64,000 nt of DNA, from the IMG/VR virus record IMGVR_UViG_3300021400_000057, positions 1-64,000 of that record; one strand, written 5' to 3'. Origin of the DNA: a virus (lineage: Duplodnaviria; Caudoviricetes). Shown one piece after another: positions 2,588 through 36,177 of the stretch (positions are counted from its first letter, which is position 1; every line of letters starts with the position of its first letter). The notes under the pieces were generated by a model. That model searched no databases. It was given only the letters and a program-made list of their open reading frames with translations, and was not told the origin of the DNA. The position numbers were made by a program, and so were the translations under genes.

Positions 2588-2661
2588 AGGGGTATAGTTC
2601 AATGGAAGAACAGTAGTCTCCAAAACTATAAACGTGGGTTCGATTCCTTCTGCCCCTGCCA
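2588..2661 (+). tRNA. trnW: tRNA-Trp (CCA)
   Basis: Acceptor AGGGGTA/TGCCCCT, D-arm GTTC/GAAC, anticodon loop CTCCAAA, TTCGATT loop, encoded CCA end; one T-T mismatch in the T-stem. Confidence 0.92.
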
Positions 2662-12600: not shown

Positions 12601-15600
12601 CTATTCCTATCATCTATACATGGTCAGCCTATATTGGCGATGCAGAGAATGAGCTTAAACGTACTGCTGAAGCTCAGGGAGAGAGTGTTGCTAAAACAGA
12701 GCAACAGCTTGAACAAGTTGCGCGTCAAGCTGATTTAGTCACTCGTTTAGCTAAAGCCTATAATCGTGGTGTAGATTCTTTGAAGGAATGTACTGAGGGT
12801 ACGGAAGAATATAGTAAGAAGCAGAAGTTTCTCGAAGATATGAAGAAAAGCATGATTAGTATTCTTAAAGAAGAAGCTGTGCAGTTCGATGAGACTGGTC
12901 ATGTTCAGCTTGATACTATCAATGAGGTAGCTGAAAAAGAAGCTGAACATTACACGGAAAAATTGAAGGAAGACAAAGAAAATATAGAGAAAGAAAAAGA
13001 AAAGACTCAGGAGTATCTCGATTCGGCTCAGGCGCGTATGGATTCTTTGAAAGCTGAAATGGAAGTTATTAAAGCCAATGGTCAAGCATGGGATTGGCTA
13101 ACAAAAATGCGTAATAGTGCTATCGAAGGATTAGGTACTGGCTTAAAAGCCCTGTCTAATATCAATGTTCCTGATGTTATTACGAGAGCTATGGGGCAAA
13201 AAGGATTCTTTGATTCTGTAGGAGATGAGTTAATTAAGATTGCAAAGGACGAGGCTCTTGGCGAGCATGGTGACCCTGACGCAATGCAAAAAGAAATTGA
13301 GAACGTCGAAGATGAAATAGCAAAGTATCGAGACATTATTACTCAATACAATGGTAACCTTGTAACAATCGAGGAAAAACTTAATGCTAAGACACTTAAT
13401 GATTTGGAGAATAATCCTTCTGACGGCGGTATCATTGAGCCTAAAGATGATGAAGAAGGCGGTAAAGGCCGTGGTAGCGGTGGTAGTGGTTCTGGTGGTA
13501 AGTCTCGCTTGCCTTACGAATCTGATGAACTTGCGGCGGCTATTCATGAAGCGGCACAAACACAATACGCCAAGGACAATAGCTTGACCGAGCCTTTGCT
13601 CCGTGGTCTTGCTGATGTCCAGTCTGGCTTGTCGCAGGACTTTAACGACGGTGTAAGGATTGGCGCGTTTGGTGTTACCGAGGAAATGGGCAAACGGTTC
13701 GGACAAGATGTCTATACTCCGATTGGTAATGCTATGACTGCGGTACTTGCATTGACACAGAAGATTTCTGACGCTGGCGGCGATATGGGTGCGGCTCTTA
13801 ATAGCTTTACTGGTGGTAATGCTAGTGGTGTCTATGCGGCAATGAGAACCCAACAAGATGCTTACAACTATGACGGTACTGATTATATCGGTAGTTCTGA
13901 TTTTGGTGCTGATGTTATTGCGGCGGCTCGTCAACGTCTTGGGCTTCCTTATGGTGGTTCGGATTTGTCTGATGAGTTCCAAGCTGTTTGTACTACGTTT
14001 GTTCAGCGTGCGTTAGTTGATGCAGGAGCAGACGAAGATATTGTTCGTGGTTTAACTGCTGATGCGAATAATTGGGCGGAAAATGCTGGTGCGGCGTTCC
14101 ATCCTTACGGTGATGGTTACGCTCCGAAACCCGGCGATATAGCTTTGACTGGTATTGATGAAAGTGGTCATAGTGGTCATGCCAATATAGTTGATGAAAA
14201 CGGTACTGGTTATTATTCTGCTGGTGGTTCGGCAGGAGTGAGCGCACATTATGACACCCCGATTGAAACTGCCTACGAAGGCGACATTGAGGGGTATATT
14301 GATATTGCCGCATTGACTGGCAAAACGAGAGGGCTTGGACTTCGCTCGAAAGGTAGTAATGCACGCAAGAGTGTCTTTGATTTCCGTCGTAGTGCTTATG
14401 AACGGCTTATGTATCAGATACAGAAAGCTAAAGAGGACTATGAGGATACAGCCAAAGACATTGAGCTTGAACGTGCATTGACTGGTGATTCCTATGAACT
14501 TGCGGCGCGTGAAGAATTGAATGAGCAAGCCAAACTCACAGCAGAGCAGAATAGCTTGAAACTACTTGAAGCAATGTATAAGGGCGTACAAAAGAGCATT
14601 GAGAATACGATTAAGAACGCCCCGGATTTGCAAGTCGCTCTTGGTCAAGAAGGAGCGAAGTGGGCTGACCTTGTGCCTGAAGAAAAGAAACAGTTGGCAA
14701 GCCTCTATAAGAACGATAATGGGGTGTTTGCCGAACTCGTCAATGAAGAAATTAAATTGCACGATGCGTTGCGTGAACAGCATAAGGTAGTGAAGGAACA
14801 AACCTTAAAGGCAAATAAGTATCTCCACATGAGTATTGAAGAAGCGGCGAAGTTTGAGATAGAGCGTTATCAGATGAAGTATGATAATTTTGAATCTAGC
14901 TTGCCAGACGACAATGATTCTTTCTACTTGAATCATGTTAAGTCAAATCGTGCGAAGCAGGAAATGTTGAGAGGACAGATTGCCGCGCAGACAACTTGGC
15001 GCGATTATGCGTACAATCAATACGTTGATTCTGTTGCGAAAGACCAAGAGACATTGACTGAATTGCAAGGGAAAATCCAAGCTGGTCAAGAAAATCTTGC
15101 GGTTCTTAAACAGCAGGAAGAAGCTGGTAATGATGTTGCCTACGCAATCAAACTTCAAAACCTAGAACTTGAACAAAATATTAAGTTGTTTGAGGCTATT
15201 GGAAAATTTGGTAGTAACGCAACAATGCGATTGGAAAAAGGATTCTATGATGCTGATACTGCTCTTAATAAAATGCAAAGGGATTTGGAAAAGGTCGCTA
15301 AACAAGACTTGCAGAATATCCGAAATTATGGAGCGCAGATGTTTACTGACTTGATTGTTGAAGGTAAGAGCTTTGAAGATGTATGGGATTCTTTGTGGAA
15401 AGACCTTGCAAGATATACCATCAATGCGATATTCCAAGTGAATAACTCTGGCAATATTTGGAACTCCTTGTTCAGTTGGTTTGGTGGAGGCAAAGCTACT
15501 GGTGGTGGTCTTGCGAAAGGTGGTCGTATTCCCGGCTATGCACAAGGCGGCGGCATGATTAAAGGTGCTGGTACTGGAACGTCTGATAGTATCTTGGCAT

Positions 15601-18465: not shown

Positions 18466-19260
18466 ATGACGATTCCAGTTTCATTACAACAGATGAAGGA
18501 TAAGGGAGAAACCTTCTTCATCGAATTGTATGAGATTGCTTTGCGAACAGGAACAATTTACCTTGCCGCTTGCGACGAGGATATTGAGTTTAACGGGCAA
18601 ACCTATATAGCCGTCCCGTTTGAGCGCGGAGAAATCTCAAAGTCTATCGACCAAGTAACAGACCAATGCACTATCAGTATTGGTGATGTTGATGAAGATA
18701 GGCTTGCTTATATTATGAATGGCTTTGATTTTCGAGGGTGTGCGGCGGCAATTACGCGCATAGCATACCCCGATAGCCTAGAAACCAATCAAGGGTTTTA
18801 TGTGTTTGGTGGATACCTTGATAACCCTGCTTATGAGGACGGAGTGTTCTCTTGTACGATTAAGAGTTATTTCCCGAATATCCAAGCCCCTTCTCGTTCA
18901 TATCAACTATCGTGCAATAGCGCGTTTGGTGATTGCGTATGCGGTCAAAGCAAAGACAGGACAACGCTTAAAGTGACTGCCGTGCATACTGACGGCTCGT
19001 TCCGTGTAGGTAAGAGCTATGCCACTAATTACTGGAAGGACGGACTCGTATCAATCTCTGGTGAGTCTAGGCTTATCACTGGTTCTGACGATACTATAAT
19101 CCGTGTCAATTATGGTTTCATACAGGACAACCTTGTTGGCAAGACTGCGGTATTGGAGCGCGGCTGTGATAAAACCTATGAGACGTGCAAGAACCGCTAT
19201 AATAACCTGAAAAAATTTTCTGGCTTTCCAGCGATTCCGTTTGAAAGTCAATACAGATAA
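18466..19260 (+). CDS. Tail hub protein (gpL / DUF2163-BR0599-like)
   Basis: C-terminal GCDKTYETCKNRYNNLKKFSGFPAIP; CNSAFGDCVC Fe-S-type cysteines. Confidence 0.88.
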   Translation: MTIPVSLQQMKDKGETFFIELYEIALRTGTIYLAACDEDIEFNGQTYIAVPFERGEISKSIDQVTDQCTISIGDVDEDRLAYIMNGFDFRGCAAAITRIAYPDSLETNQGFYVFGGYLDNPAYEDGVFSCTIKSYFPNIQAPSRSYQLSCNSAFGDCVCGQSKDRTTLKVTAVHTDGSFRVGKSYATNYWKDGLVSISGESRLITGSDDTIIRVNYGFIQDNLVGKTAVLERGCDKTYETCKNRYNNLKKFSGFPAIPFESQYR

Positions 19261-19272
19261 GGGGGTGAAATC

Positions 19273-22242
19273 TTGGGTAAGGACGGTAAGAGAGGAAAGA
19301 CTACTTGGAGTCTTATTGGTTTTGTTATCGGCGCGGCTTTCTTCGGTGGTGTTGCTGGCTCTGCAATCAAAGCAGGACTTATGGGCGCGTCATTGTTTGG
19401 CACAATATGGACGGCGTTAAATAAGGATAACCAAAATAGAGACAACGGCTCAGCTACGGTAGCCCGTTTCAGTCGTTCGCAAGAAACGATGACATCCAAT
19501 GGTTCGATACCACTGGTGTATGGGTTAAGGCAAGTTACTGGTAACCAGACATACCACATGACCGATGCCGATGCCAACACTCTGTATAAACATATAGTAT
19601 TGTGTGAAGGCGGCATCAAAGGGATTCAAGGTTTGACTGCGAGTGATTTACTTGTCCCCGGCAATGGGTTTGACAATAACGTAGTATTTACAATTCAGAA
19701 TACGAAGTACGCAGATGCGAGAGTGTGGAAGGAAGGACAAACCTTAAACCTGTATTGTAACGGGAGCACAAAAAGTATCCACCTTTGCAATAAGAATGAC
19801 TTTGAGACAGAGAACGATGTAGAGTATTGGGAATGGCAAACATCAATCTCTGCCTTAATAGCGTACATTAACCGCCTACATCAAGGGTGGGAGTGCTTTC
19901 CTATTGCGACTACAAGTAAATACCCCGGCGACATTTCTATCGCCTACGCAAAGCGTGTGTTTGACAAACACTTAGTTAAAGGTGTGTCGGTTTCGCCCGA
20001 TGGCTCTCGTCATTCTGGGTATTTAGGTATCAACATCATTGCTCCGTCTGGCAAGGCTGTTGCGTTCAAGAGTAGTGACAACGTAACTATGTATTGCATG
20101 GCGGCTGTCAAGGATGATATTCCTGCATGGAGAGAGAAACTTGCACATAGCGATGACCCAGATTCTCTTGACGAATACCATTTCATCAAGAGTGGTAGTG
20201 GGGCTTGGTTTCGTGGACACGATGCTCAACCGGGCGAGTTAATCAATGATGCGAACCGTATTGATACTCAGATTGTTTGGGTATGGCGTGAAGAAAGTTC
20301 TTCGGTTTCATGCTATAAAAACCCTGCAATGGCAACCGCTGAAACCGTAACTGGCGGTACAAAGTACACGTTCCATGATGGAGCTTTGCCAAGTAACTAT
20401 ACAGAGGTTGGTGCGTATCCGAACATGGCATGGATAGAAATGACCTGCTGTGTTGCTGACGAGCTTAGTGGTAACCCGTCGATTTCTTGTGAGGTCTTTG
20501 GCAAGAAGGTATATGACACACGCACTGGTAAGACTGAATACAGTACGAATCCTGCAATGTGTTTGCGAGATTTCTTATTGTCGCCCGTATATGGTCTTGG
20601 AAACTTCCTCGATGCAAGTGACTTGGACGAGGATTCTTTTAAGGAAGCGGCTGACTACTGCGATGAAGTTATTGAGTTTGAAGCGTCTGACGATGTGATT
20701 TCACGGGCAAAGCGTTATGAATTGAATATCGTCATTGATTCCCAACGTAATGCTTGGGATTGGGTTAGCGATATTCTTGCTTCGTTTGGCGCGTACATTG
20801 TCATCACGCAAGGCAAGCTCATGTTGAAGATGGAGCGCGAAGCTCCAATCATCTATTCGTTTGACGAAACAAACTGTAGTGATTTGAAGATAGCTCCTAT
20901 CGAGCTAGAGCAAGTGCCGAATAGGTACGAGGTTAGCTTTGTTGACCCGTTGAATAATTGGGATGCGGTTAAAGCAATCGTGGAAGATTCCGCTGACCAG
21001 CATACGAGAGGCAAGATAATCACGAAGGACGTACAGCTTGAAGGTGTCACTTCGCAGAACCAAGCATTGCGCTTGGCGCGGTTCTATCGTGATTATAATG
21101 CGTCGTGCGTTATCAATGTGTCATTCAAGACTGGCTATCAAGCATTGCATTTACAACCGGGCGACGTGGTGAAGCTCACTTATAAATGTTTTGCAGATTT
21201 TCCATTGCGTATCAATGAGATTCGAGAGGATGCAGAGGGCGGTTTTGAAATTACTGGTCGCCAATACAATCCAACGATTTATAATGATACGCTTGGCGCT
21301 CCGCTTAGAGCGTATAACTATGCTACGAAAGACGTGCCGCTTGGCTCTGTTCCTAATGTCATCAACCTTGCTTTCAAGCAATTCTTCTACACAGATAGCA
21401 ACGGCACGATTCATAACGAAATACAGGGAACATGGACACCGCCACCGCAATACGATTACGTTAAGGAGTTTGCCATTTACAAGAAGTCCAACGACGGACA
21501 GTGGGTTCATTTGCTGAATACCAGCGGCACATCGTTTAAGACTAATGTAATGATTGGTGATGTTGTCCAGTTCAAAGTGTGTACTGTCAGCACGAATGAT
21601 GATATGTCGAGTGGTGTTATTTCCCGTGAAATGGAAATTGACGGTATCGACCATCCGCCCGATGACGTTTCTGGGTTGGTAGCGGACTACAAGGACGGTC
21701 AATTACATATCACTTGGGATAAGAGTACCGAGCTTGATTTTAAGCAGTATATCGTGGCTGTAAACGGTTCACTTTTTACTACTACAAACACTTCCATAGA
21801 TGCCCCTGCTGTCGATGGGACGAATAACATCTCTATCAAGGCAGAGGATTTCGGCGGCAATCAGTCTAATGAGGTTTCGATGAAGCTGGATTTAGACCTT
21901 GCACCAACCAATGTAATGAAGTTCAATGCTGTATATTCTGGTAATTACGTTGTTCTGTCATGGCTTCCCTCTGATAGAGCAGAGTATTATAAGATAGGCG
22001 GCGCAACGTATAAAGAAGTGTATGGTGGGTGTAGCTTACTCATTCCAGTTACGACAACAGGAATGTACTCGTATACCATTAAGGCTGTCAACAGCTTTGG
22101 CGAAAGCGATGTATCCGAGTGTTCGGTAGTGGTTTCCTCTATCGAAGAACGAAATACCGTTACGACGGTAAATCTTTTGAGTGACCTTACTTGCGACGAT
22201 GCTTGTAAGATTGAAGATGGTTCCCTAGTTTTGATTCCATAA
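19273..22242 (+). CDS. Tail tip / host-specificity protein (gpJ-like) with fibronectin III domains
   Basis: IPLVYG, GKKVYDTRT, YSTNPAMCLRDFL and PNRYEVSFVDP motifs; FN3 repeats (PPDDVSGL, PTNVMKF). Confidence 0.9.
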   Translation: MGKDGKRGKTTWSLIGFVIGAAFFGGVAGSAIKAGLMGASLFGTIWTALNKDNQNRDNGSATVARFSRSQETMTSNGSIPLVYGLRQVTGNQTYHMTDADANTLYKHIVLCEGGIKGIQGLTASDLLVPGNGFDNNVVFTIQNTKYADARVWKEGQTLNLYCNGSTKSIHLCNKNDFETENDVEYWEWQTSISALIAYINRLHQGWECFPIATTSKYPGDISIAYAKRVFDKHLVKGVSVSPDGSRHSGYLGINIIAPSGKAVAFKSSDNVTMYCMAAVKDDIPAWREKLAHSDDPDSLDEYHFIKSGSGAWFRGHDAQPGELINDANRIDTQIVWVWREESSSVSCYKNPAMATAETVTGGTKYTFHDGALPSNYTEVGAYPNMAWIEMTCCVADELSGNPSISCEVFGKKVYDTRTGKTEYSTNPAMCLRDFLLSPVYGLGNFLDASDLDEDSFKEAADYCDEVIEFEASDDVISRAKRYELNIVIDSQRNAWDWVSDILASFGAYIVITQGKLMLKMEREAPIIYSFDETNCSDLKIAPIELEQVPNRYEVSFVDPLNNWDAVKAIVEDSADQHTRGKIITKDVQLEGVTSQNQALRLARFYRDYNASCVINVSFKTGYQALHLQPGDVVKLTYKCFADFPLRINEIREDAEGGFEITGRQYNPTIYNDTLGAPLRAYNYATKDVPLGSVPNVINLAFKQFFYTDSNGTIHNEIQGTWTPPPQYDYVKEFAIYKKSNDGQWVHLLNTSGTSFKTNVMIGDVVQFKVCTVSTNDDMSSGVISREMEIDGIDHPPDDVSGLVADYKDGQLHITWDKSTELDFKQYIVAVNGSLFTTTNTSIDAPAVDGTNNISIKAEDFGGNQSNEVSMKLDLDLAPTNVMKFNAVYSGNYVVLSWLPSDRAEYYKIGGATYKEVYGGCSLLIPVTTTGMYSYTIKAVNSFGESDVSECSVVVSSIEERNTVTTVNLLSDLTCDDACKIEDGSLVLIP

Positions 22243-28978: not shown

Positions 28979-29224
28979 GTGAATGATGAACAGGTTATGA
29001 AACTTATGGATAAGTTGTCCGAGTTATCAGAGCGTATCGCCCGTGTCGAAACAATGCTTCGTGAACGTGCATCAGAGCTTGAAGAAATCAACTGCATCCT
29101 AAAGCAACACAATGACCGTATTGCTGTGCTGGAACAGAACAAAGCTAGTATGCGCGAAATCATTGGCTTTATCGGCTGGGCAATAGCTATGCTGGTTGCG
29201 ATTTGGAGTGTGATAGCTAAATGA
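28979..29224 (+). CDS. XhlA-like holin/hemolysin-family protein
   Basis: N-terminal coiled coil plus C-terminal TM helix (IIGFIGWAIAMLVAIWSVI). Confidence 0.65.
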   Translation: MNDEQVMKLMDKLSELSERIARVETMLRERASELEEINCILKQHNDRIAVLEQNKASMREIIGFIGWAIAMLVAIWSVIAK

Positions 29225-29544
29225 GTAGATTCAAAGAATGGGTTGTAGATTTCGGGGAATGGTCGAAAGACAATTATATGGTGTTGGTGTACGGAGCAGG
29301 AGTTGTCCTGCTCCCCTTTTTATTTGTCTTGGCTTTTTCTCTCATCTATGGCTATTGGAGCAATGGTCTTTACGGAACTCATTTTGAGTTGTCCGTTGGA
29401 TTCAGTGGTGTGACTGTCCTCGCTACGGCGGCGGCTACCATTTATGGTATCGCCAATCAAGCGGCAAAGCAGTACAGCATTGATAGTGAGTTGAATAGTG
29501 AGCATGGTAAAGCGCCAACTAGGGCGGGAAAGGTTAAAGGGTGA
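29221..29544 (+). CDS. Holin
   Basis: Two TM helices; directly upstream of the endolysin. Confidence 0.7.
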   Translation: MSRFKEWVVDFGEWSKDNYMVLVYGAGVVLLPFLFVLAFSLIYGYWSNGLYGTHFELSVGFSGVTVLATAAATIYGIANQAAKQYSIDSELNSEHGKAPTRAGKVKG

Positions 29545-29550
29545 TGTGTA

Positions 29551-30126
29551 ATGATGAAGGGTATTGATGTCAGCGAAAACAATGGTGTTGTCGATTGGGA
29601 GAAGGTTGCGGCGGCAGGGTATAAGTTTGCTATTGTCCGTTGTTCCTATGGACAGCATGAGTGGGACGAGATGTTTGCGGCGAATGTGCAGGGTGCAAAG
29701 GAGGCTGGACTTCTTGTTGGAGCTTATCACTATGGTTATGGGCTTTCCGTAGAGGACGCAAAGCGCGAAGCTGAGAACTGTATGTCTGCCCTTGATTATG
29801 CAGGGGTAGAGCTTGACCTTCCGTTGTTCTATGATATGGAGGACGCAGACGGCTATAAGGCTGAACGTGGTTTTGCCTTTGACCCGCAGGAAATGACGGA
29901 AATGTGTAAGGCATTTATCGACGTTTTCAAGGGTGTTCTTGATGTCGGCGTGTATGCAAGCTACAGTTGGTTCGAGGATTACCTTGATTGGCGCGAACTG
30001 AACTGCCCCATTTGGAATGCTCAGTGGGATGAAACTGATGACCTGAAGGGGTATATGTGGCAGTACACGGATAGTGCTGTGATTGGTGGTAAATACTTTG
30101 ACGCTAACGTAATCTATGGGGAGTGA
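29551..30126 (+). CDS. Endolysin, GH25 muramidase (catalytic domain only)
   Basis: GIDVSENNG, GAYHY, DMED and WQYT motifs. Confidence 0.95.
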   Translation: MMKGIDVSENNGVVDWEKVAAAGYKFAIVRCSYGQHEWDEMFAANVQGAKEAGLLVGAYHYGYGLSVEDAKREAENCMSALDYAGVELDLPLFYDMEDADGYKAERGFAFDPQEMTEMCKAFIDVFKGVLDVGVYASYSWFEDYLDWRELNCPIWNAQWDETDDLKGYMWQYTDSAVIGGKYFDANVIYGE

Positions 30127-30662
30127 GTGACTTGTGGAAAAATGTATCTGTGAAAATCGTCTGCTTGTCGCTGTTATTGTTGTCATGCTTGGCATTGCCG
30201 TCGCGTGGTTTTTGTTCGCAGACCACAGACCAGACCGTGACAATATCGGTGCAGGATTTCAACAGGTTGATGACCAACTTGGCAGAGTCCGAGACGGCAT
30301 TGACAGAAGCGAAGCAACAGTTGAACGACTCGAACGAAGCATTGATGATAGCACAAGAACAGCTATCGCTGTCGGGGATGGAATCGACAGAGCTTATGAA
30401 TCAGCTAGTCGAATCGAGGATGCAAGTGAAGAAGCTACAAGAGCAGTTGGCACAGCAATCGAGGGAAACAATGTTGCTCAAACAGCAGTTGAACGAAGCC
30501 TCGACAGACTTAGAGAAAGCCAATCAATTCTTGCAAAATACCAAACAGGAAGTCGAAAAGACGATTAAGGAGCATGAAAAGGTTGAGCGAAGTTTGCGAA
30601 GGCAAGTGACTGGTTGGCAGATAGCTACGGCTGTCGGTACTATTATTGGTTGTCTTTTGTAA
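30123..30662 (+). CDS. Spanin-like protein A (signal or lipoprotein N-terminus, coiled coil, C-terminal hydrophobic tail)
   Basis: GTG overlaps the endolysin stop; KIVCLSLLLLSCLALPS leader; long heptad region; WQIATAVGTIIGCLL end. Confidence 0.7.
   Translation: MSDLWKNVSVKIVCLSLLLLSCLALPSRGFCSQTTDQTVTISVQDFNRLMTNLAESETALTEAKQQLNDSNEALMIAQEQLSLSGMESTELMNQLVESRMQVKKLQEQLAQQSRETMLLKQQLNEASTDLEKANQFLQNTKQEVEKTIKEHEKVERSLRRQVTGWQIATAVGTIIGCLL
30134..30568 (+). CDS. Spanin-like protein B (i-spanin-like) nested in +2 frame
   Basis: N-terminal TM helix LLVAVIVVMLGIAVAWFLFA plus coiled coil; lies fully inside 30123-30662. Confidence 0.65.
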   Translation: MEKCICENRLLVAVIVVMLGIAVAWFLFADHRPDRDNIGAGFQQVDDQLGRVRDGIDRSEATVERLERSIDDSTRTAIAVGDGIDRAYESASRIEDASEEATRAVGTAIEGNNVAQTAVERSLDRLRESQSILAKYQTGSRKDD

Positions 30663-30667
30663 TTTTT

Positions 30668-30711
30668 GGTGGGGGTACATGGATTATTCTGTGTACCCCC
30701 ATTATTTTTTT
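30668..30711 (+). terminator. Late operon terminator
   Basis: GGTGGGGGTACAT...GTGTACCCCCATT followed by a T tract. Confidence 0.85.
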
Positions 30712-30721
30712 CTCTAATTGC

Positions 30722-32967: not shown

Positions 32968-33121
32968 TTGCGTGAAACGAGGGGCAGAGTTCTCTTACAG
33001 TGGATATACTTGCGATGGTGACAAGGCGGCTACTGTCGAGAGTATTCATCGTCAAGTAGTAACTCTCCGTGCGAGGCTTTTGGAGCTTGACAAGAAAGTT
33101 AGGAGTGTCAGCGGATGGTAA
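32879..33121 (+). CDS. Hypothetical protein
   Basis: RBS AAGGAG; overlaps the dnaE start. Confidence 0.65.
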   Translation: MEAKKLDKKNEKMLANLTTLIGLEAVALHDCVKRGAEFSYSGYTCDGDKAATVESIHRQVVTLRARLLELDKKVRSVSGW

Positions 33122-36100
33122 ATCTGCACACACATTCAGAGCATAGCACTGGCTTTGACGGTTACCAAACGATTCCAGAAATGGTAGGCCGTGCGAAAGA
33201 GCTTGGCTATCCCGCATTAGCATTGACTGACCACGGGACAATGGGTGGTATTTTGGATTTCTCTGCGGAGTGCGAGAAGCAAGGTGTCAAGCCTATCTAT
33301 GGCATGGAAGCGTATTTCTGCGCTAACCATACTGTCAAGGACAAAACCTTGACACACCACCTTGTCCTACTGGCAATGAATGAACAGGGCTATTACAATC
33401 TCAAAAAGATGGATTCCATTAGCTATACTGAGGATTACTATTACTATAAGGGTCGGATTGATAGAGGTTTGTTATCTCAATATCACGAAGGTCTTATCTG
33501 TCTGTCGGCGTGCATGGCTTCCATTGTAAATACGGCAGATGGTGAAAGCTGGTTTAGTTGGTTCAAGGATTTGTTTGGTGATAGATTCTATGCCGAGATT
33601 CAGCCATTGAACCTCATGGAACAGCAGGAGTACAATGCCAAAGTTATCGCTTTAGCAAAGCAGTATGACGTTCCACTTGTCGTTACTACTGATGCTCACT
33701 TCGCAAGGAAAGAGGATTTGCCTTACCACAAGCTATGGGTGAGCCTTCGTGGTGGCAATGGTTACCATGATGACGAGAACTATTTATGGAGTGAAGATGA
33801 AATCAGGGATACGTTGTGGATTCCAGATGATGTCAAGGATGAGTGTATTGCCAATACTCATGCCATTGCTGAACGATGCAATGTGTCGCTGAAAATGGAA
33901 GGTAATCATTATCCGAAGTTTGAGACTGACGATGATGAAAAGCAGATTCGCGACATTTGCCGCAAGGCATGGAAAGCTAAAGTTCCGAAGGGAAAGTACA
34001 AGGAATACGGCGAACGCTTTGAAGCTGAAATCAAGACCCTAAAGCAAGTAGGCTATCTCAACTATCTTTTGATTACTTGGGATATGCTGAATTGGTGTCA
34101 CGACAATGACATTATGACTGGTTGGGGGCGTGGCTCTGTTGGTGGTAGCCTTGTAGCGTATCTTATGGGACTCCACAAGATTGACCCAATCAAGTTTGGC
34201 ACGAAGTTCTTTAGGTTTGTCAATCCTTATCGGGTAAGTCCACCTGATATTGATGACGACGTATCAACGCGACATCGCGGTAAAGTAATTGATTACCTCA
34301 AAGAGAAGTATGGCAACGTGTCCAAGATTTTCACGCTGAACAGATTGGGCGACCCGGACAAGGGCGGTATAGGAAAGTCTGCGATACAGCGTGCAGGACA
34401 GGCTTTGCAGATTGAACCGTCTGTCATTGATGAGATTACAAAGCAAGTGTACGCTTCTATTGACGATGTGCTGGCTATTGATAGCGTATTGTCAACAGAG
34501 GAACGTGAGCGCCTTGCTGATGTAGCTAAACACTTCTATGGACGGCTTGAAAAGCGCGGTATTCATGCAAGTGCAATCCTTATCACGCCGGACGAAATCG
34601 AGAACTACTGCCCATTGGAAGGGTGTTATTCCACCGATACTTCTACTGGTAAGCGCGTTTGGATTCGTGCCGCCGCCTATGACTGGCACAAGCTGGAAAG
34701 CGAGTTTGGGCTTTTGAAAGAGGATATTCTTGGGCTGAATACCCTTGACCTTATCAGTGATACGATTGAGGGCGTAAAAAAATCCACAGGCGAAACTGTG
34801 GACATTGAGAATATTCCTCTTGATGATGCCGAAGTTTATAAGCTGTACTCCGAAGGACACCTTGACGGCGTGTTCCAAATGGAATCTAGGGGTATGCGCG
34901 GGACAGCGAAGGAACTTGGTGTGACTTGCTTTGATGATGTGGCGGCTCTCGTTGCGCTTTTTAGACCCGGCCCGATAGACAGCGGTATGCTTCAACAGTA
35001 TATCGACGGTAAGCATGGTGCTGAAATCCAGTATCCTTGTGAAGTCATGCAGAAGGTTACGGAAAAGACATACGGTGTTATTGTTTACCAAGAGGAAGCT
35101 ATGCTGATTGCAATGCAGATGGCAGGGTATAATCTTGGCGAGGCAGACGCTCTCCGTAAAGTCATTGGACGTAAGGAATTGACTAAAGTTGATGCCGCAG
35201 TCAAGGACTTTATTGCCGCCGCAGTAAAAAGAGGGCATACCAGAGAGGCGGCAGAAGCCGTTGGTGAGCAGTTGAAGGCGGCAGGACGCTATATTTTTAA
35301 TCTCGCCCACAGCGTCGAATACGGTTTAACCTCTTACGTTACCGCTTGGTTAAAGGTTCATTACCCCGTACATTTCATGTGCGCTCTGATGAACTCAAAG
35401 GACAAGCAAGCCGATATACTTCCATACCTTGACGAGTGTAAACGTCTTGGGATAGAGATATTGCCCCCCGATGCAAAGCGTGGTAATACGCTCTGGGAAG
35501 TCGAGGACGGCGACAAAATCCGTGTAGGGTTGACTTATATCAGCGGCATAGGAAACAACCTAAAAACCGCCTTTACGGACGTTTGGGAAGATATTGTGGC
35601 TACCAATAACAAAAAGGTAACCATGAACCTCATCAAAGCAGGGGCATTGGACTATCTTGGCAAGTCCCGTGGGTGGATGTTAGCCAATCTTGAAAGCACG
35701 CAGGGCTATTTGCGTCGTCGTGAACAGTGTTTGCAGAAGGTTCGAGAGAATCAAGAAGGACTGGACAACGCTACTGACGATAAAGCACGCAAGAAATATC
35801 AGCGTCAGCTTGATAGTTGGCAAGTAAAGCTCGATGAAGTCCAGTTGCTTGAAAGTGCCGAGGAAGGTTATGACGAAATTGCTGGTGAAATCGAAGTGTT
35901 ATCGTTTTCCTTTAAGTCCATGCCGAAAATCCTGACAGGCATAGCGAAGTCTGTCAACGAATTTCAAGACAAGAAGGGTAATACTATGGCTAGGATTACC
36001 TTTTCAACGCCCTACGGCAATAAGGACGGTCTTGTTTTTGCGTCGGCATGGAAGAAGGAGAAGTACCGCCACAGGGATAGAGGTATGGTACGTGGCATTA

Positions 36101-36177
36101 CGATTGAACAGGGCAAGCAGTATGAGTTTATGATAGAGAAAGGGGTGATTGTCGATGCCAGAGAACGAGACGGATAA
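33115..36177 (+). CDS. dnaE: DNA polymerase III alpha subunit (family C)
   Basis: PHP domain (LHTHSEHS, ALTDHG), GWGRGSVGGSL, SPPDIDDD, IHASAIL, GVFQMES, FRPGP and FNLAHS motifs. Confidence 0.97.
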   Translation: MVNLHTHSEHSTGFDGYQTIPEMVGRAKELGYPALALTDHGTMGGILDFSAECEKQGVKPIYGMEAYFCANHTVKDKTLTHHLVLLAMNEQGYYNLKKMDSISYTEDYYYYKGRIDRGLLSQYHEGLICLSACMASIVNTADGESWFSWFKDLFGDRFYAEIQPLNLMEQQEYNAKVIALAKQYDVPLVVTTDAHFARKEDLPYHKLWVSLRGGNGYHDDENYLWSEDEIRDTLWIPDDVKDECIANTHAIAERCNVSLKMEGNHYPKFETDDDEKQIRDICRKAWKAKVPKGKYKEYGERFEAEIKTLKQVGYLNYLLITWDMLNWCHDNDIMTGWGRGSVGGSLVAYLMGLHKIDPIKFGTKFFRFVNPYRVSPPDIDDDVSTRHRGKVIDYLKEKYGNVSKIFTLNRLGDPDKGGIGKSAIQRAGQALQIEPSVIDEITKQVYASIDDVLAIDSVLSTEERERLADVAKHFYGRLEKRGIHASAILITPDEIENYCPLEGCYSTDTSTGKRVWIRAAAYDWHKLESEFGLLKEDILGLNTLDLISDTIEGVKKSTGETVDIENIPLDDAEVYKLYSEGHLDGVFQMESRGMRGTAKELGVTCFDDVAALVALFRPGPIDSGMLQQYIDGKHGAEIQYPCEVMQKVTEKTYGVIVYQEEAMLIAMQMAGYNLGEADALRKVIGRKELTKVDAAVKDFIAAAVKRGHTREAAEAVGEQLKAAGRYIFNLAHSVEYGLTSYVTAWLKVHYPVHFMCALMNSKDKQADILPYLDECKRLGIEILPPDAKRGNTLWEVEDGDKIRVGLTYISGIGNNLKTAFTDVWEDIVATNNKKVTMNLIKAGALDYLGKSRGWMLANLESTQGYLRRREQCLQKVRENQEGLDNATDDKARKKYQRQLDSWQVKLDEVQLLESAEEGYDEIAGEIEVLSFSFKSMPKILTGIAKSVNEFQDKKGNTMARITFSTPYGNKDGLVFASAWKKEKYRHRDRGMVRGITIEQGKQYEFMIEKGVIVDARERDG

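Follow-up and report, generated by a model that had tools for sequence, protein, structure and literature searches.

Two overlapping reading frames behind a phage endolysin gene: a putative dual-coded pair and candidate spanin equivalent

In an uncultured tailed phage the endolysin gene is followed at once by DNA that can be read, on one strand, as two long proteins. This raises the question of whether the same bases encode both proteins and, if they do, what such a pair contributes at the end of a lysis cassette. The analysis was based on a 64,000-nt window (the whole stretch of DNA that was analysed, hereafter "the window") of a 75-kb phage genome, IMG/VR record IMGVR_UViG_3300021400_000057. 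The two open reading frames (ORFs), here called inner and outer, lie on the same strand and have 435 nt in common, the outer being in the +1 frame of the inner. An initial annotation had described them as a fully nested pair of coiled-coil genes and a candidate for a new spanin architecture. The locus consists of the following parts:

30118..30123, + strand: Shine-Dalgarno sequence GGGGAG, common to both starts, 8 nt before TTG 30132 and 10 nt before GTG 30134
30123..30662, + strand: outer ORF, 179 amino acids (aa) from GTG 30123, which overlaps the endolysin TGA; likelier 176 aa from TTG 30132
30134..30568, + strand: inner ORF, 144 aa from GTG; a member of phrog_18860
30569..30662, + strand: outer-only 3' tail (94 nt) beyond the inner stop, coding for a basic cluster and a Gly/Ala-rich hydrophobic C-terminus of 15-17 aa (30612-30659)

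Reading from sequence, we put at roughly 55% the probability that these ORFs form a dual-coded, co-initiated pair whose products would associate in the periplasm and serve, at the final step of lysis, as a spanin equivalent without a lipoprotein.

Coding in both frames of the overlap

Both frames are open beyond what chance would allow. When synonymous codons were resampled from the phage's own usage with the outer protein held fixed, about 12 stops were expected in the inner frame (probability of an open frame <0.0005), and with the inner protein fixed 5-7 stops were expected in the outer frame (P 0.0005-0.004). Resampling matched for guanine-plus-cytosine (GC) content over 11 loci gave 7-11 expected stops versus 0 observed, in both directions, and the third frame over the overlap contains 12-26 stops in the 11 loci. 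Scored against the phage codon table, the two frames reached +0.10 and +0.18 per codon; control off-frames of real genes scored -0.23 (sd 0.07) and -0.15 (sd 0.09).

We compared the locus with the DNA of relatives, members of the family at about 25-86% protein identity and with a locus GC of 0.32-0.53. A profile of the inner protein found 93 proteins, most of them 120-170 aa long and matched full-length, and a profile of the outer frame found 12 independently called proteins of 113-190 aa together with 12 further metagenome loci. The overlap is stop-free in both frames in the window and in 22 of 23 related loci, so that dual-frame conservation in homologues, a check set beforehand, was borne out. 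Public gene calls for the window's clade give the inner protein alone, never the outer; the outer family has been missed in most loci because all its DNA is shared with another gene. From these comparisons the pair appears to be a family conserved in a group of uncultured phages.

The substitutions separating the window from its closest relative (L001), and the variation within a second clade (L020-L029), were counted by position in the outer codon:

Endolysin, window versus L001: position 1, 14/191; position 2, 8/191; position 3, 85/191
Overlap, window versus L001: position 1, 5/144; position 2 (inner wobble), 12/144; position 3 (outer wobble), 19/143
Outer-only tail, window versus L001: position 1, 4/31; position 2, 5/31; position 3, 13/32
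Overlap, second clade: position 1, 0.29; position 2, 0.36; position 3, 0.36
Outer-only tail, second clade: position 1, 0.21; position 2, 0.21; position 3, 0.51

Compared with endolysin wobble positions, differences between the window and L001 are depleted in the overlap at both the outer wobble (p=6e-10) and the inner wobble (p=6e-14), and wobble variation is 3-5x lower there than in the neighbouring endolysin. Furthermore, changes that alter one protein tend to be silent in the other: 10 of 18 outer-altering changes are silent in the inner frame (28% expected, p=0.014) and 16 of 24 inner-altering changes are silent in the outer frame (27% expected, p=5e-5), with the same two-way enrichment in the more distant L002 (p=0.02 and 0.006). 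In the outer-only tail, differences follow the three-base periodicity of translated DNA. Taken together, the stop-free frames, the wobble depletion and the third-position excess in the tail point to purifying selection on both frames, and thus to what appears to be a true dual-coded gene pair. The central claim of the initial annotation, that two long helical membrane proteins are dual-coded on 435 nt right after the endolysin, is upheld by these comparisons: both ORFs are as described and both frames are selected.

The comparisons bear directly on a simpler explanation, in which only one frame yields a functional protein and sequence composition keeps the other open as a shadow, untranslated or without function. 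Gene finders call one frame per locus, shuffling of the inner gene's codons among themselves fairly often yields an open outer frame (P 0.03-0.89), and the +1 frame of a transmembrane (TM)-coding stretch easily yields hydrophobic N-termini. Set against this, the wobble suppression and the conditional silence of changes run in both directions, the outer-only tail evolves as coding DNA, and when the codons of the outer gene are shuffled in the same way, the inner frame acquires about 5 stops (P <=0.0035). In addition, the starts, the positive n-region, the cleavage-site pattern, the Leu heptads and the C-tail of the outer protein are conserved across the whole GC range of the family. We regard a shadow frame as highly improbable.

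The outer protein is, moreover, at least as well conserved as the inner, with a mean column identity of 47% versus 42% for the inner alignment and 12 invariant columns versus 1; its invariant columns include five Leu residues at 7-residue spacing (53/60/67/74/81). Leu codons in the outer coil are TTR in 66% of cases versus 45% in the phage's genes, and the hydropathies of the two frames are correlated (r = 0.32-0.51). An outer TTR Leu codon necessarily gives I, L, V or F in the inner frame, and therefore both helices share one heptad pattern and hydrophobic periodicity.

The starts of the two frames lie close together throughout the family, in an order that differs between clades. Outer-type proteins of relatives open with Met-Trp (ATGTGG). 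In the second clade GGAGG is followed after 6-7 nt by ATGTGG, in which the ATG is the outer start and the overlapping GTG the inner start. The window carries TTGTGG at this place, and given the Met-Trp start of the relatives its outer protein probably begins at TTG 30132, with the inner GTG 2 nt further on. In other clades the inner ATG comes first and the outer ATG follows 4-16 nt later. Since the starts are interleaved or swapped between clades, full nesting is not a family trait; it holds in the window from either outer start, and the "reversed nesting" of the initial annotation is not supported. Across the alignments the family would be better described as co-initiating, the outer ORF having a 3' extension of 70-127 nt. 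Co-expression through one ribosome-binding site serving two out-of-frame starts is likely from this arrangement. A programmed frameshift joining the inner N-terminus to the outer C-tail was also considered; it was rejected, since the outer frame has a conserved start of its own, from which it stays open, and encodes its own signal peptide.

The two predicted proteins

The inner protein begins with a hydrophobic segment of 22-29 aa (Kyte-Doolittle 2.5-3.3), preceded by Lys/Arg in most of 11 inner proteins. In the window it forms a TM signal-anchor at residues 9-29 (30158-30220) and ends in WFLF. The AlphaFold2 model consists of a helix at 3-29, a short disordered linker and a single helix at 38-143 (about 106 residues), with a predicted local distance difference test score (pLDDT) of 80-94, and the protein is net acidic. 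It is predicted to be a type II inner-membrane protein, N-in/C-out, with an outward-facing helix, which is the topology of an i-spanin. Both the N-terminal TM segment and a predicted helical periplasmic domain of about 100-130 residues fit i-spanins, and on these grounds the i-spanin-like N-terminal anchor first proposed for this protein is supported. All of the 11 inner proteins scanned match phrog_18860, a family of unknown function (best E 1.5e-8). Matches to Rz-like spanin PHROGs were found for phrog_214 in 4 of 11 (best E 4e-5) and for phrog_89 in 4 of 11 (best 7.9e-4), and Pfam gave no match for the inner protein.

The outer N-terminus has the parts of a signal peptide, namely a positive n-region, an h-region of 15-20 aa and a c-region of the form P/S-x-x-G-x-C|S. 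In the AlphaFold2 model, helices at 43-84 and 89-178 meet at a hinge at 85-88, and the mature part comprises about 145 residues. The coil runs from a Leu-heptad helix through a basic cluster to the hydrophobic C-terminus. The outer family has no representation in PHROGs or Pfam, Pfam giving only sub-cut-off generic coiled-coil noise on outer homologues, and Foldseek searches of BFVD with the inner and outer models returned generic helices alone.

The type of the outer signal turns on one residue:

30213..30215, + strand: codon of outer Cys31, with which the c-region of the signal peptide ends (G-x-C|S); in the inner frame this stretch falls inside the WFLF motif

In alignment A4 the signal peptide ends with a Cys in each of the 11 loci. 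When a PROSITE-type lipobox rule (PS51257-type) was applied to this conserved Cys, 3 of 11 passed (L002, L003 and L013). The window's own match lies instead at Cys22, and this LLSC lipobox, from which the initial annotation had read a near-lipobox and a u-spanin-like lipoprotein, is absent even in L001. The residue before the conserved Cys is F, I or T in most members; the Cys itself is replaced by Ala in P0110 and P0111 and is absent from L025 and L030, which carry an ARA|E site. The G-x-C|S pattern agrees with the -3/-1 rule of signal peptidase I. Because the Cys fails the lipobox rule or gives way to Ala or ARA|E in relatives, the outer signal is best assigned to the signal peptidase I type, and because no lipobox is conserved, the outer protein is neither an o-spanin nor a u-spanin.

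We nevertheless weighed the outer protein as a lipoprotein of u-spanin topology, its lipid in the outer membrane and its C-terminal TM domain in the inner membrane, working with the embedded i-spanin. The Cys found in every A4 locus, the three loci in which it lies in a valid lipobox and the hydrophobic C-terminus would fit such a protein. The sequences around the Cys, as set out above, favour signal peptidase I in most members, the periplasmic part is predicted to be helical and not beta-rich, and a lipoprotein would have no Lol pathway for its transport if the host were a Negativicute. This makes a u-spanin very unlikely.

A six-frame lipobox scan of the 75-kb genome yielded no conserved lipoprotein candidate; it found two ORFs, one of which is the outer ORF with its non-conserved Cys22 site. 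The other is a 45-50 aa ORF (window 13435-13587, + strand) lying out of frame inside the gene for a 3097-aa tape-measure protein, and its signal, a textbook one for a lipoprotein, combines a Lys-rich start, a Val/Ala-rich core and an SLAC lipobox.

Lysis cassette, host and proposed function

The pair closes a lysis cassette with these further members:

28979..29224, + strand: 81-aa coiled-coil protein with a C-terminal TM segment, XhlA/holin-like by weak matches only (PF10779 E 0.0085; phrog_689 holin E 0.0025)
29221..29544, + strand: 107-aa membrane protein, presumed holin, between the XhlA-like gene and the endolysin (phrog_28789, function unknown, E 2.8e-16)
29551..30126, + strand: GH25 muramidase endolysin, 191 aa (PF01183 E 1.5e-26 over residues 5-180; phrog_291 endolysin)
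30667..30714, + strand: intrinsic terminator, a 17-bp stem and T run, 5 nt past the outer stop and about 100 nt past the inner stop

The terminator marks the end of the late/lysis operon, and the pair forms its last cistrons. Gene order is constant over all long contigs: gpJ-like tail tip, fibres, XhlA-like gene, holin-like gene, endolysin, pair, terminator and early genes with the DNA polymerase III alpha subunit (PolIII alpha). A counterpart of the XhlA-like gene that opens the cassette, 80-81 aa long, occupies the equivalent position in L002, L013, L017 and L018. The window's endolysin is a catalytic domain alone, without a wall-binding domain. Immediately 5' of the pair lies either a GH25 or, in L010, a VgrG3-like lysin, and in L024 the upstream neighbour, at a distance of about 200 nt, is an Amidase_2 gene; all of these pair-linked enzymes are short and single-domain. 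The L010 neighbour (L010 1-711) is a VgrG3-like C-terminal lysozyme domain (PF21277) and that of L024 (L024 2171-2782) an Amidase_2 domain (PF01510). Since different muralytic enzymes stand beside the pair across clades, the pair moves as a module independent of endolysin type. An antisense ORF of 307 aa (window 29320-30243, - strand) spans the whole endolysin gene and enters the pair; antisense ORFs are likewise open in L001 (250 aa) and in L010 (309 aa, over a different lysin), and their openness is probably a compositional effect.

This position also bears on an envelope function apart from lysis, such as superinfection or surface exclusion. One Atlas neighbour cluster of an outer homologue carries the automatic label "SEC10/PgrA surface exclusion", which we treat as a lead only, and membrane-anchored exported coils are common in exclusion systems. 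Exclusion genes are, however, usually expressed from a lysogenic or early region, and the pair sits in the late operon beside whichever endolysin family is present, the L024 amidase included, with the operon terminator directly after it. Such a function is quite unlikely.

Evidence on the host comes from the rest of the genome. Searches with the tail-tip proteins (PF13550; PF09931 with PF09356) gave 1381 and 130 matching phage records, with diderm hosts in all matches listed; for the tail-tip module at window 18466-22242, the matches listed belong only to phages of Proteobacteria and one cyanobacterium. The polymerase (33115-36177) and the GH25 domain (29551-30126) are closest to those of Firmicute phages, and the Atlas neighbours and nearest clusters of the inner protein are labelled Bacillota. 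The genome is thus a mosaic of this tail-tip module and a Firmicute-like polymerase and lysin. PolIII alpha has 1020 aa in the window (33115-36177) versus 1284 aa in the near-identical phage L005, whose inner protein is identical; the L005 gene has intein-splicing and HNH matches (L005 4130-4581), pointing to an intein presence/absence polymorphism. The phage also carries a tRNA-Trp (anticodon CCA; window 2588-2661, + strand).

The contrast between the tail-tip matches and those of polymerase and lysin is consistent with the diderm Firmicute host suggested initially, and on this indirect sequence evidence such a host is plausible. It has been reported that Negativicutes are without lolA-E and that no outer-membrane lipoproteins were detected in Veillonella (PMC5491611). 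With no Lol pathway, canonical o-spanins or u-spanins could not be sorted to the outer membrane there. Our literature searches on spanins or phage lysis in Negativicutes and diderm Firmicutes found nothing relevant.

We therefore propose the following route, as expected for a Lol-less diderm Firmicute host. Ribosomes from one binding site would start at TTG 30132 and GTG 30134 and make two proteins from the same 435 nt. The inner protein would be anchored in the inner membrane with its acidic helix of about 106 residues pointing outward, and the outer protein (about 176 aa) would be exported by its signal peptidase I type signal as a hinged Leu-heptad helix with a basic cluster and a hydrophobic end. 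The two would associate in the periplasm and act last in lysis, after holin and endolysin, in outer-membrane disruption or fusion, as a spanin equivalent without an outer-membrane lipoprotein. The outer protein has two candidate elements for reaching the outer membrane, its hydrophobic C-terminus and the conserved strand at its mature N-terminus.

The predicted inner-outer complex scored 0.34 (runs 0.37, 0.34 and 0.32), the best of 3 controls scoring 0.00; contact agreement between runs was at least 91% and partner pLDDT at least 82. In the benchmark, 58 of 80 solved complexes came up to the 0.34 mark, as did 2 of 110 mismatched pairs; only 7 of those 80, and both mismatches, did so with a score <=0.60. 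As the prediction used custom 11-row alignments, these counts hold roughly.

The proposed spanin equivalent also has evidence weighing against it. The complex prediction, in which the heterodimer initially suggested scores above its controls, supports inner-outer binding weakly. Weak as they are, the Rz-like matches of the inner protein could stem from nothing more than a TM-plus-coil composition. The signal peptide and the C-terminal tail initially attributed to the outer protein are both present, but the tail is short (15-17 aa) and moderately hydrophobic, with Kyte-Doolittle values <1.6 in 4 of 9 relatives that have an in-frame C-terminus, and basic residues lie mostly N-terminal of it, unlike in a classic stop-transfer anchor. 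Neither protein has an evident element for outer-membrane targeting, the lipobox test having failed. No match was found when the cassette, both proteins and two distant inner homologues were searched by blastn/tblastn against 50,697 phage records, that is, among cultured phages. The 23rd related locus, L031, is broken: it lies on a low-coverage contig and has frame breaks and a replaced 5' end. In L003 the outer tail has a 1-nt deletion, one G of a TGG codon being missing relative to relatives such as P0107; this reflects either misassembly or a genuine inactivating mutation, on a 1.1-kb contig.

Further observations on these loci and on the searches are as follows. Over 527-1271, L031 is degenerate or mis-assembled; its 5' end is without TM segment and signal peptide, and the frames are fused near the 3' end. 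L003 was considered as a truncated outer protein, which was rejected, the hydrophobic tail being intact in the shifted (inner) frame at about 820-830. Scans of IMG/VR and JGI with the first alignments gave no match, and the single match of a GTDB genome scan, in an Armatimonadota metagenome-assembled genome, was rejected as chance because its frame is spurious, running antisense to a HAD-like gene.

Several of the same facts could be turned to another account, in which both proteins are real, the host is a monoderm Firmicute and the target of the pair is the cytoplasmic membrane, where it might serve, for instance, as an accessory to the holin, as a timing or antiholin device or as an XhlA-like lesion factor. 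An XhlA-like gene heads the cassette, the GH25 domain and the polymerase are nearest to those of monoderm Firmicute phages, the nearest Atlas clusters are labelled Bacillota, and neither protein has an outer-membrane signal. Such hosts would, in turn, make it unusual that the linked endolysins are short and single-domain without a wall-binding module, and the tail-tip module matches phages of diderm hosts only, among the matches listed. The topology of the inner protein is that of an i-spanin, with weak Rz-like matches besides, and helices of periplasm length (about 16-18 nm) would have no obvious role on a monoderm surface. We consider a monoderm host with this kind of pair unlikely, and prefer the spanin equivalent of a diderm host.

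Relation to known spanins and significance

The nearest known systems are Rz/Rz1 of lambda (embedded) and LysB/LysC of P2 (overlapped), described by Kongari et al. 2018 (PMC6139136). Like them, the pair consists of the last genes of a holin-endolysin cassette and includes an i-spanin-like type II protein of about 140-150 aa whose periplasmic domain is helical. As in two-component spanins, the partner lies in the +1 frame on the same DNA and is missed by gene finders, and as in the LysB/LysC type it runs past the i-spanin stop. Known o-spanins begin at about 0.4-0.5 of the i-spanin length and are short, Pro-rich, unstructured outer-membrane lipoproteins (PMC6139136). The outer protein resembles them in its out-of-frame overlap with an i-spanin-like gene (+1, complete, in 22 of 23 relatives); it has no conserved lipobox and is not short, Pro-rich or unstructured. 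Unlike known o-spanins, it co-initiates with the i-spanin-like gene, overlaps the whole of it and exceeds it in length, and it is predicted to be helical, with a signal peptidase I signal and a hydrophobic end. The inner protein also differs from lambda Rz, which has two coils and a linker, in that no such linker is predicted.

Two further systems invite comparison. With the u-spanin gp11 of phage T1 the outer protein shares an N-terminal export signal, a C-terminal hydrophobic segment and its place as last gene of the lysis cassette. T1 gp11 depends on a lipoprotein signal for the outer membrane, has a predicted beta-rich structure and acts alone, whereas the outer protein is predicted to be helical, has no conserved lipobox and is always paired with an i-spanin-like protein. 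The starts recall lambda S105/S107, where two starts a few bases apart share one ribosome-binding site, an arrangement that could set the ratio of two lysis proteins. S105 and S107, holin and antiholin, share a frame and differ by two residues; in the present pair the frames differ, the starts are separated by 2-16 nt and the products are unrelated in sequence. We infer that the pair is a variant of the overlapping-spanin theme.

A broader proposal is that phages of Lol-less diderms (Negativicutes and relatives) use a lipoprotein-free envelope-fusion machine, in which a two-frame, co-initiated pair would supply an anchored helix and an exported Leu-zipper helix, and the Gly/Ala end or the mature N-terminal strand of the outer protein would engage the second membrane like a viral fusion peptide. 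We offer it tentatively, as possible though doubtful.

A conserved family that gene calls have missed is a concrete case for overlap-aware phage annotation. With about 145 shared codons and two long conserved helices as products, the pair goes well beyond Rz/Rz1, where the second product is short and disordered, and would, if true, be among the longest conserved same-strand gene overlaps in tailed phages. The heptads appear to be co-encoded through TTR-Leu and xTT-Ile/Val/Leu/Phe codons, and the interleaved ATGTG start would offer a simple model for fixed-ratio co-expression of two proteins. In diderm Firmicutes without Lol and Braun's lipoprotein canonical spanins would be unworkable, and the pair is a testable candidate for lysis there. 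If true, a lipoprotein-free fusion machine would be an independent solution to outer-membrane disruption.

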